DNA of 64,000 nucleotides from Curvularia clavata (taxonomy: Eukaryota), in the NCBI GenBank assembly GCA_023920165.1, contig CP089274.1:2666001-2730000 (forward strand), read 5' to 3'. Shown in pieces: positions 62,453 through 64,000 of the stretch. A program made the position numbers and the translations under genes. A model generated the notes under the pieces. That model was not told the DNA's origin. It saw nothing but the letters and a program-made list of their open reading frames with translations, and ran no database searches. Positions within the stretch are counted from its first letter, which is position 1, and every line of letters begins with the position of its first letter.

Positions 62453-63094
62453 TCACCGAGGTGGAAGATTTGGGTTGGAACCTAAGCAACGACCGTTTGG
62501 CGGACCGTTTGGAAAGTAGCAGGCATTGCAGCCCCTGGGTGTACAAACATTGAGACTCTCGCAATAGGTACCAGCACAGGCAGCCGATTGCCGGATGGAA
62601 AGATCCCCTGCATCTCGCTTCCCGCTCTGGGTGGAAGAAGACTTCTTTCCAATCTGAGGCTTTTCGCTGGGGTGCAAGATAATTTCTTCATTTGTGACGA
62701 GTCGTCCGTCAATAGTATCCCGTACCAAGGACAATACTGAATCCGGTGTCTTTGCATCGTCCGACCAGGCACTGAGCTGTTGCTTGCCGAACCATCGGAA
62801 CTGCTCAGGGTCCAGCTGACGGTAATCGATAACTTCGAGGTTGCCAGCGAAACTACGTAAAACGCCATCTACTCCAACGCTGAGTGCTCCTGTAGCGCCT
62901 GTCTTAAGATCTTTCACGACCTCTGAAAATGATCCTTCAATGTAACGATTAATGGCAGGAGACCGTGCCCGGTTAATTGCGCTGGCTTCGATCTTTGCTA
63001 CCATGTTAGAATATCCAGTTTTATTGCGAATGTAGTCCAACCTTACGGTATGGAGGATAGCAACAGCCAATGCCAGGCAGTGTTCTGCCAACAT
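62453..63094 (-). CDS. Secreted pre-pro-protein with a C-terminal 6-Cys (knottin-like) peptide
   Basis: MLAEHCLALAVAILHT, then a 54-nt intron (63046-62993, GTAAGG..CTAAC..AAG), then IEASA. Pro-domain LSVGVDGVLRSF..VIDYRQLDPEQ, processing sites GKR and LSIR, then QSAAC-x4-C-x5-C-x4-C-x2-C-x10-C. Confidence 0.75.
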   Translation of the reverse strand: MLAEHCLALAVAILHTVRLDYIRNKTGYSNMVAKIEASAINRARSPAINRYIEGSFSEVVKDLKTGATGALSVGVDGVLRSFAGNLEVIDYRQLDPEQFRWFGKQQLSAWSDDAKTPDSVLSLVRDTIDGRLVTNEEIILHPSEKPQIGKKSSSTQSGKRDAGDLSIRQSAACAGTYCESLNVCTPRGCNACYFPNGPPNGRCLGSNPNLPPR

Positions 63095-63838
63095 CTTGTG
63101 CGTCTTGAGTCGTGGATGAAGCAAGAAATGAGGCCCTGGTCCCTTCTAAGCCGTTGAATATTTCTACTTTGAAGATATCCTCCTATCCGGCTTTTTATGC
63201 CCAAGTGTCCTTCCGGTAGTGTCTTCAAATTTGATAATACCCTCAACTTAGCGTTGGCGGTTACCGCTCTCAGACATTCCCCCGCCTAATTTCATTGATA
63301 CTTTAGCTGCCTTACTTGGCACCCAAAGATAAAGTCCTATCACATCTCAGTAAGGTGAATATGTTTCCTTGGCCTTGTTGAGCGAATCCTTTGCCTCGTG
63401 TTATGGTACCGCCTGTTTTTTGTGGAACATTAGGCGTAATAGAGAGCGCCTGGGTATTCTCTAATTCATCTGTCTAGACTAAGTCACTGTGTTGACCCGT
63501 ACATAGAGAACTACTTGATACTTCTGAGGTACCGTCTTCATCGTTCTTGGAGAGATCCGCTATCCTGATGTAGAAAATTGAGCCCCGCGGATGGCTCTTG
63601 CTCGGTTCAGGTTGTGGTATGCACGCTGAGATGTGAAAAGATAGGAAGGATCTTTTTTTCGATTTCCGGGTGTAACCATGACTGAGCAGTCACGAGTAGC
63701 AAGTATAACTTATCATGTGCGCATGTGGCTGGAAACCGGTTTTGATCTACTTCTTAACAACCAGCCTTTGATTTTGAGCGACAAATATTCCATCACCCAC
63801 CTCAAAGAAGACATCCAAAGTTTAGAAACAATTAAGTG

Positions 63839-64000
63839 ATGACTACAAACACTCCATCCGAGCCGAATTCGTTGGGGTCTCCTTCGAACCAGCCTCATAC
63901 GTATGATCGTAACCATCCCGACCAGGAAGAGATAACCGCTATTCTTGCAAAGTTCAACAAAGATCCTCTAAGCATCATATCGCTCGGGAAAGACGGTGTT
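63839..64000 (+). CDS. 5' part of a signal-less protein apparently related to the pro-domain of the divergent neighbour (truncated by the window end)
   Basis: An open frame from ATG 63839 to the window end reads MTTNTPSEPNSLGSPSNQPHTYDRNHPDQEEITAILAKFNKDPLSIISLGKDGV. It is not in the ORF track. Confidence 0.6.
   Translation, partial: MTTNTPSEPNSLGSPSNQPHTYDRNHPDQEEITAILAKFNKDPLSIISLGKDGV

Follow-up and report, generated by a model that had tools for sequence, protein, structure and literature searches.

Many small proteins secreted by Histoplasma carry a C-terminal six-cysteine motif and have been assigned to the Fungi1 knottins, which include Avr9 (Gilmore et al., 2015; PMC4503680). Avr9 of Cladosporium fulvum is the founding member of Fungi1, and the family is expanded in Histoplasma (PMC4503680; Rodriguez et al., 2025; bioRxiv 10.1101/2025.05.13.653811). 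According to the parts of the latter report considered here, the knottin loops are 3–4/8/3–6/2/6–12 residues long, the genes have two exons, tagged knottins are larger in cells, where they carry the propeptide, with only the small form in supernatants, and the Histoplasma knottins both reach the host cytosol and serve as virulence factors. The same parts of the Fungi1 literature treat the propeptide only as a segment that is cleaved off and describe neither a conserved folded domain nor a free-standing paralogue. Here, we analyze a 64,000-nucleotide stretch of Curvularia clavata DNA (contig CP089274.1, positions 2,666,001–2,730,000; the whole stretch is referred to as the window). Its last 1.5 kb contains two divergent genes: gene A, whose product (P0001) fits a pre-pro-peptide of the fungal secreted-knottin kind, and gene B, whose product (P0022) is a paralogue of the gene A pro-domain that has no cysteines and no recognizable signal peptide. 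We lean, with moderate confidence, toward an anciently linked pair of divergent paralogues, in which gene B would perform the domain's own cytosolic function, not strictly dependent on the knottin and not as a dedicated antidote.

The second group of described proteins with a similar layout is the K2PP effectors (Kex2-processed pro-domain effectors, such as SnTox3, ToxA, SIX1/4/6). They were defined by KR/RR or LxxR sites, which are Kex2 motifs, a role as intramolecular chaperone was suggested for their pro-domains, and the search criterion was a pro-domain rich in disorder-promoting residues and without secondary structure (Outram et al., 2021; PMC8528282). LxxR sites are also conserved in the AFP and bubble-protein antifungal families, as stated in the relevant part of a 2026 report (PMC13525654).

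The gene A product resembles both groups. Like the Fungi1 knottins, it is small (200 amino acids (aa) or less), predicted to be secreted, and ends in a six-cysteine motif with a loop 4 of two residues; its gene has two exons with the knot in exon 2, and it carries an N-terminal propeptide, which in Fungi1 is removed before or during secretion. Loops 1, 3, 4, and 5 (4, 4, 2, and 10 residues) lie inside the Histoplasma ranges given above, whereas loop 2 has five residues instead of the eight of the G217B motif, as far as the considered parts of the report define it. With K2PP effectors it shares the predicted signal peptide, the N-terminal pro-domain, the KR/LxxR site, and the cysteine-rich mature part. 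K2PP pro-domains are short and mostly devoid of secondary structure, whereas that of gene A is about 100 aa long, predicted to be folded, and better conserved than the mature peptide. In contrast to the disorder sought in K2PP pro-domains, its residues 50–145 are predicted to form a helix, three strands, and helices, with a predicted local distance difference test score (pLDDT) of 82–92.

The gene A pro-domain and the gene B protein are homologous. BLASTP aligned P0001 with P0022 over 72 residues at 32% identity (E 2e-5), and hhalign of the two family alignments gave a probability of 97.3% (E 2.5e-11, 78 columns). When P0022 was searched against all 480 stop-to-stop open reading frames (ORFs) of at least 60 aa in the window, gene A ranked first (E 0.006). 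The joint alignment has invariant columns that both forms share, namely G74, D76, G77, V78, L79, R80, V88, L94, D129, G130, and P142; YRQLDPEQ is near-invariant in the pro-domains, and the corresponding partner stretch is DAVGLSPR. The AlphaFold2 models of both proteins have the same order of elements, a helix followed by three strands and helices. For P0001, modeled from the unspliced 213-aa ORF, these are H56–62, E70–73, E78–82, E88–93, H96–109, H118–125, and H136–140. For P0022, modeled with a 150-sequence alignment, they are H27–38, E46–49, E54–58, E64–69, H72–81, H84–95, and H103–107, followed by a long charged helix at 120–142 (mean pLDDT 75.6; 84–90 for residues 21–110).

The first-pass annotation had proposed this relationship from a short motif shared by a minus ORF, which includes SEVVKDLKTGATGALSVGVDGVLRSF, and a plus ORF, which reaches the window end after 54 codons with TAILAKFNKDPLSIISLGKDGV. 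Both ORFs and the quoted peptide strings were found exactly as written, with start codons 744 bp apart, and the motif turned out to belong to a true homologous domain. With only 54 partner codons in the window, a chance match or an artifact of a wrong gene model might have been suspected; this we regard as ruled out, with next to no probability left to it, because the full-length partner aligns over 72–78 positions and the same polar N-terminal start recurs in independent gene models of the partner type from many taxa.

The full-length gene B protein was retrieved from the protein collection using the 54 visible codons, over which it is 100% identical; it has 154 aa, and its contig and that of P0001 are equally long (5,935,961 bp). 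The ORF is preceded by an in-frame TAA (63833–63835) just before its ATG. Past the window edge P0022 reads ...DGVLRTLSADRAVLDAV...IDGSKATEEELWHP, and after ...SLGKDGV it continues with LRTLSADRAVLDAVGLSPRLVKAF...IDGSKATEEELWHPDASLLP and a Lys/Glu-rich tail. The annotation had predicted that (L/F)RS..V(I/V)D would follow in the partner, with neither a cysteine tail nor a signal peptide. The protein indeed goes on with LRTLSADRAVLDAV and then IDGSKATEEELWHP, matching IDGRLVTNEEIILHP of gene A; it is entirely free of cysteine and starts with a polar N-terminus. Several other signal-less members of the family (P0137, P0148, P0157, P0174, P0116, P0163, P0207, and P0190) have a second conserved C-terminal motif, a cysteine followed by ..VVRSNY.L.PK or ..MSDH.I, which is missing from P0022.

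The coding sequence of gene A (stop included) has 213 codons unspliced and 195 spliced. A search of the word-indexed protein collection yielded 21 relatives of P0001, all unnamed or labeled "hypothetical protein," from Alternaria, Neodidymelliopsis, Trypethelium, Ophiocordyceps, Niveomyces, Cercophora, and Rhypophila. Their alignment shows a hydrophobic N-terminus, a conserved stretch (RY.PG, G.DGVLRSF, V(I/V)DYRQLDPEQ, (V/I)DGRLVT, P.EKP), a variable Ser-rich linker, and a C-terminal block with six invariant cysteines. Neither the Pfam search nor the alignment nor the sequence itself revealed a peptidase domain in the precursor. The gene consists of two exons with a single intron after codon 16, so that every knot cysteine is encoded by exon 2. 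Contigs of two runs, X3 and X7, join position 62992 to 63047 (CT..AC on the plus strand, GT..AG on the minus strand); the runs stem from two studies of a related organism, and the contigs are 90–95% alike to the window and are presumed to represent RNA. The same 54-nt segment is missing from the 195-aa Alternaria gene models P0006 and P0007. The real gene A product is therefore most likely 195 aa long, and its predicted signal peptide after splicing reads MLAEHCLALAVAILHT/IEASA.

A cut after Arg168 would free the 45-aa peptide that the annotation had singled out, here Q169–R213 downstream of the LSIR/Q site, with a mass of about 4.7 kDa and an isoelectric point of 8.3. Its cysteines are residues 173, 178, 184, 189, 192, and 203 of the 213-residue ORF, which gives a spacing of 4/5/4/2/10, and the tail is modeled with pLDDT 71–80. 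A PDB sequence search with P0001 returned "cysteine knot peptide 3A7" as the best match at a non-significant E of 0.78, and the 45-aa peptide alone had no match in such a search.

The domain common to both genes, which we call the DGVLR domain, defines a large family. A profile of both forms searched against 1.84 billion cluster representatives retrieved 586 proteins with E ≤ 1e-3, of which 267 reached E ≤ 1e-10; unlike the K2PP pro-domains, this pro-domain family also holds signal-less proteins. No Pfam family reached its cut-off for P0001 or P0022 (sub-threshold noise only), no solved structure matched by sequence in PDB searches, and Foldseek against pdb gave no match at E ≤ 0.001 for either model. 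In the wide fold search with VIA, the best Z scores were 3.0 and 2.6 for the two models, and novelty of the fold is not claimed. The look-alike clusters in the ESM Atlas, with 794 and 202 members, consist of unnamed Ascomycota proteins without any Pfam family. The gene A pro-domain is predicted to be an autonomously folding domain of about 100 aa with no Pfam or PDB match.

Among all proteins retrieved, 91 have six cysteines in the last 60 residues and are referred to as Cys-type. The exact 4/5/4/2/10 spacing occurs in 30 of them, and the other frequent patterns are off by one or two residues; [LIVFAMP]xxR is found within 10 aa before the first cysteine in 60/91 and RQ in 41/91. Further named Cys-type members come from Seiridium, Hirsutella, Thozetella, Melanomma, Tothia, two Aspergillus species, and Polytolypa, and all are labeled "hypothetical protein." Other architectures are represented by P0105 and P0114, in which a predicted signal peptide precedes a domain without a cysteine tail, and by P0093, P0094, and P0206, with two domains in tandem. 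The top profile-search match, P0073 of Seiridium cupressi (358 aa), is a merged model of two tandem Cys-type copies in which the knot of the first copy is truncated.

A tree of 175 domain sequences was built with FastTree (LG+gamma) from 108 profile columns and rooted at the midpoint, leaving out rows that had fewer than 60 aligned residues. P0022 falls into a 44-leaf clade (SH-like support 0.90), designated clade P. The six-cysteine tail is absent from every leaf. Where 40 or more residues precede the DGVLR motif, a hydrophobic N-terminus was detected with a Kyte-Doolittle window in 1/35 clade-P proteins vs. 33/47 Cys-type proteins. Clade P includes the partner ORFs of three further loci (L001b, L002b, and L003b), P0072 of Histoplasma, and P0111 of Emmonsia. 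Its taxa are Alternaria, Nothophoma, Histoplasma, Emmonsia, Xylariaceae, Phialemonium, Podospora conica, and the lichen fungus Acarospora, i.e., at least four classes of Pezizomycotina. Since clade P is old, signal-less, cysteine-less, and spread over several classes, gene B appears from these sequences to represent a conserved intracellular branch that formed early in the family, and its neighbor is not the source of a recent duplication that produced it. The uniform lack of a signal and of a cysteine tail likewise suggests that the gene B protein acts inside the cell.

Stand-alone homologues of propeptides are known among protease inhibitors. Pbi2 is a cytosolic inhibitor of yeast proteinase B (MEROPS I9) without a signal peptide, and CTLA-2-type proteins are inhibitors resembling cathepsin propeptides (I29); in both cases, the mature part of the precursor is a protease that is inhibited by the free propeptide. 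Gene B is like them in that its product stands alone and is homologous to the pro-region of a precursor of the secretory pathway, and this is an analogy of layout only. Unlike in those systems, the mature part here is a 45-aa knottin and no enzyme, and the genes are physically paired; Pfam and VIA searches of both proteins showed nothing that relates them to I9 or I29 in sequence or fold.

Linkage was examined in 15 loci that the gene A alignment detected in one scan of metagenome contigs of the Joint Genome Institute (JGI), and these loci were searched in six frames with three profiles. In all three loci with a P0001-like gene (L001, L002, and L003), a clade-P gene lies head to head with it on the opposite strand; with the window included, the pair is linked in four of four loci of the P0001 orthogroup, and the knottin gene stands alone in none. 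L001 and L002 are close to the window (78% and 79% identical to P0001), and their sequence similarity extends across the intergenic region. L003 is distant. Its frames (stop to stop, 8675–9355 on the minus and 9947–10510 on the plus strand) encode proteins 39.9% identical to P0001 and 39.6% identical to P0022, the GC content is 57% vs. 51% in the window, and its knottin precursor is about equidistant (42–45%) from the Alternaria, Seiridium, Ophiocordyceps, and Hirsutella proteins. The rest of its 14.8 kb has no match to the window. Both members are thus only about 40% identical to their counterparts and still head to head with no other match between the loci; therefore, the pair seems to have traveled, and its layout to have been inherited, as a unit.

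In two loci of other knottin subfamilies (L004 and L009; 28–32% identity, at least 2.1 kb of upstream sequence), no second copy was present. The expectation of the first-pass annotation that secreted cysteine-type and signal-less forms would be repeatedly adjacent thus agrees with L001–L003 and not with L004 and L009, and in these loci linkage appears to be a property of the P0001 orthogroup, not of the superfamily. Four loci (L005, L007, L012, and L013) had flanks too short to judge a partner, and three (L006, L008, and L015) held single copies without a cysteine tail or were cut by contig ends. Three look-ups of protein clusters, made to find the two types side by side in named genomes, yielded taxa without any matching genome pair.

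The remaining loci displayed other arrangements. In L010, of a distant subfamily, a cysteine-less copy (8886–9287, plus strand) is followed in tandem by a Cys-type copy (9995–10432, plus strand); the two are 41.7% identical and each other's closest relatives, which indicates that the duplication was specific to this lineage and that the knot was gained or lost. L011 repeats the L010 sequence but lacks its upstream flank. In L014, a partner-like signal-less gene (647–898, minus strand) faces an ORF (1750–2325, plus strand) with a six- or seven-cysteine knottin-like tail, upstream of which the profile search recognized no DGVLR domain.

Local duplication is common in the DGVLR family, as the tandem pair of L010 and the merged tandem copies of P0073 illustrate. 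The layout might therefore be a historical accident without shared regulation, the partner being a housekeeping-type cytosolic protein and the knottin a fast-evolving, dispensable leftover of a local duplication. The decay of the knottin gene in close relatives, described below, agrees with such an origin. We consider it unlikely, as both members have diverged to about 40% identity and still lie head to head, although their genomic surroundings have changed.

Gene A is broken or missing in close relatives in which gene B is retained. The knottin gene of L002 has an in-frame TAG at a Trp codon and a TAA at a His codon (2688–2690 and 2808–2810), and its partner gene (1079–1543, minus strand) is intact. 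The X3 and X7 contigs join position 61939 to 62883; the missing 943 bp (61940–62882), which have non-canonical ends and look like a deletion allele, remove gene A from residue 71 on together with the downstream region, and the intergenic region and the 5' part of the partner remain. Taken together, the L002 stops and the X3/X7 deletion indicate from sequence that gene A is dispensable in close relatives, with gene B kept. In a contig of another run, X1 (95–99% alike), 12 nt are missing in frame at 62491, where the tail following the last cysteine is encoded.

These observations bear on the toxin/immunity module that the first-pass annotation had suggested. Here, the knottin would be toxic to fungi including its producer, the pro-domain would mask it in cis, and the cytosolic paralogue would neutralize peptide that re-entered the cell or was mislocalized. 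A precedent is the K28 system of yeast, in which one gene gives both toxin and immunity, the toxin is processed by Kex2, and the cytosolic precursor captures re-imported toxin. The present locus would be similar in using a pro-form as the cytosolic antidote and different in needing a separate, anciently diverged paralogue. The partner is truly homologous to the pro-domain, the layout is kept at 40% identity without flanking synteny, and the knottin gene never occurs alone in the orthogroup; retention of the partner next to a knottin gene with two stops or a 943-bp deletion is also the pattern expected of orphan immunity. The latter observation cuts both ways: an intact partner beside a broken or deleted knottin gene argues against dedicated immunity, though an orphan immunity gene would look alike. 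Further, clade P, which spans at least four classes, shows stronger conservation than the knottin, the two other subfamilies with sufficient upstream sequence (at least 2 kb) lack a partner, the pro-domains have YRQLDPEQ where the partner has DAVGLSPR, and the secretory membrane is predicted to separate the two proteins. On balance, we judge a toxin/immunity function improbable.

A broader version, in which the DGVLR domain is a knottin-handling module, is held to be improbable to the same degree. In cis, the domain would fold and silence Fungi1-type knottins in the secretory pathway, and the ancient signal-less clade would serve as a cytosolic antidote or quality-control factor, capturing knottin or precursor that arrives in the cytosol of the producer. 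As Histoplasma knottins reach the host cytosol and P0072 shows that clade P is represented in Histoplasma, the partner clade might protect knottin producers from their own peptides in general. If this were true, the pair would be a eukaryotic, chromosomally conserved toxin-antidote unit made by duplication of a pro-domain.

Alternatively, the cytosolic paralogue could be a helper in biogenesis, pairing with the nascent pro-domain, possibly as a heterodimer, or with a shared receptor, and thereby controlling the targeting, translation, or turnover of the precursor, with the shared promoter holding both products in stoichiometric balance. The common fold order of the two models, the columns invariant across both forms, and the conserved divergent layout are in keeping with this idea. 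We find it slightly less probable than the immunity function, as many Cys-type genes have no such neighbor and the secreted domain-only and tandem forms (P0105, P0114, P0093, and P0094) suggest that the domain works without a cytosolic partner. Co-folding of P0001 165–213 with P0022 20–125, made without alignments, gave ipSAE values of 0.06 and 0.02 against a mark of 0.34, which counts neither for nor against binding.

For the linked paralogue pair that we favor, the following course can be envisaged. The precursor would enter the endoplasmic reticulum, where the folded pro-domain may assist or guard the knot during its oxidative folding. In the late Golgi, cleavage by a Kex2-like convertase after Arg168 and/or Arg161 would follow, with secretion of the 4.7-kDa peptide; its N-terminal Gln may cyclize. 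The gene B protein, with the same predicted fold, would act inside the cell through a binding function of its own in the cytosol. The pair probably arose by inverted duplication, the simplest explanation of the head-to-head layout, and a shared promoter region would have kept both genes together. Gene B would thus be co-inherited with gene A and possibly co-regulated with it through the 744-bp divergent region.

Several points weigh against this reading. For this organism, expression, cleavage, and secretion are deduced from sequence, and signal peptides were judged by the Kyte-Doolittle hydrophobicity window, a crude heuristic that is not SignalP. The putative knot topology (disulfides 1–4, 2–5, and 3–6) depends on a weak structural match of the knottin part to 6ay7_A, a cysteine-dense peptide (Z 2.3, root-mean-square deviation 2.1, 33 aligned residues). 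K2PP pro-domains are described as mostly unstructured, whereas a fold is predicted for that of gene A. The pair recurs in one clearly independent lineage, L003, as L001 and L002 are close relatives. In the midpoint-rooted FastTree tree of 108 columns, either form of the domain could be ancestral. Finally, a layout kept after flanking synteny was lost could equally mean functional coupling.

The features of the locus are listed in Table 1. The closest named relatives of both proteins are from Alternaria species and Didymellaceae, which points to an Alternaria-like fungus of the Pleosporales. The genes upstream of the pair, judged by eye from ORF translations, seem to encode an AFG1-like ATPase (48761–49936, plus strand), a transporter of the major facilitator superfamily type (51577–53664, plus strand), an oxidoreductase (54600–55719, minus strand), and a potassium transporter of the HAK/KUP type with several exons (58988–61393, plus strand); among these, neither a biosynthetic nor a protease gene adjoins the pair. 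A possible third copy of the domain, a minus-strand ORF at 61839–62180 directly downstream of gene A that contains KDRAVLDAV, is probably a chance resemblance, possibly a decayed relic. Its LAGVIPRFTKDRAVLDAVI resembles KDGVLRTLSADRAVLDAVG of the partner (10/16 identical; pairwise E 5e-4), with E rising to 0.22 against all window ORFs and an hhalign probability of 32%, and it has no DNA similarity to partner genes.

Table 1. Features of the divergent gene pair at the end of the window (positions of the window).
Feature	Position	Strand	Evidence
Gene A, coding sequence of the predicted knottin pre-pro-protein	62453..63094	-	ORF list, 21 homologues, homologue alignment
Exon 1 of gene A, 16 codons MLAEHCLALAVAILHT, hydrophobic start of the predicted signal peptide	63047..63094	-	
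In-frame intron, 54 nt, GTAAGG...TCTAAC...AAG	62993..63046	-	
Pro-domain, residues 50–146 (RYIEG ... G.DGVLRSF ... VIDYRQLDPEQ ... IDGRLVT ... HPSEKP)	62657..62947	-	Invariant columns, AlphaFold2, homology to P0022
Linker with candidate Kex2-type sites, KR 160–161 and L-S-I-R 165–168 directly before Gln169	62591..62623	-	
Predicted mature 45-aa peptide Q169–R213, six cysteines	62456..62590	-	
Intergenic region, 744 bp between divergent start codons, candidate bidirectional promoter	63095..63838		
Gene B, first 54 codons of the 154-aa paralogue P0022	63839..64000	+	ORF list, family alignment, domain tree

Full-text literature searches, supplements excepted, found neither a conserved family of knottin pro-domains nor a linked free-standing cytosolic paralogue, and the statement of the first-pass annotation that it knew of no described system with this layout agrees with the outcome.

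Secreted fungal knottins such as Avr9 and the Histoplasma Knot proteins are effectors and virulence factors, and their propeptides have so far been regarded as disposable. What is new is a conserved, predicted-folded pro-domain common to a large set of knottin precursors, without a Pfam or PDB counterpart. The same domain also appears to form an old family of intracellular proteins, and one orthogroup of each type is found head to head across deep divergence. Together, these features provide a testable handle on how fungal knottins fold, stay inactive, and are possibly tolerated by their producer, and several hundred Pezizomycotina entries labeled "hypothetical protein" gain a name and a profile.

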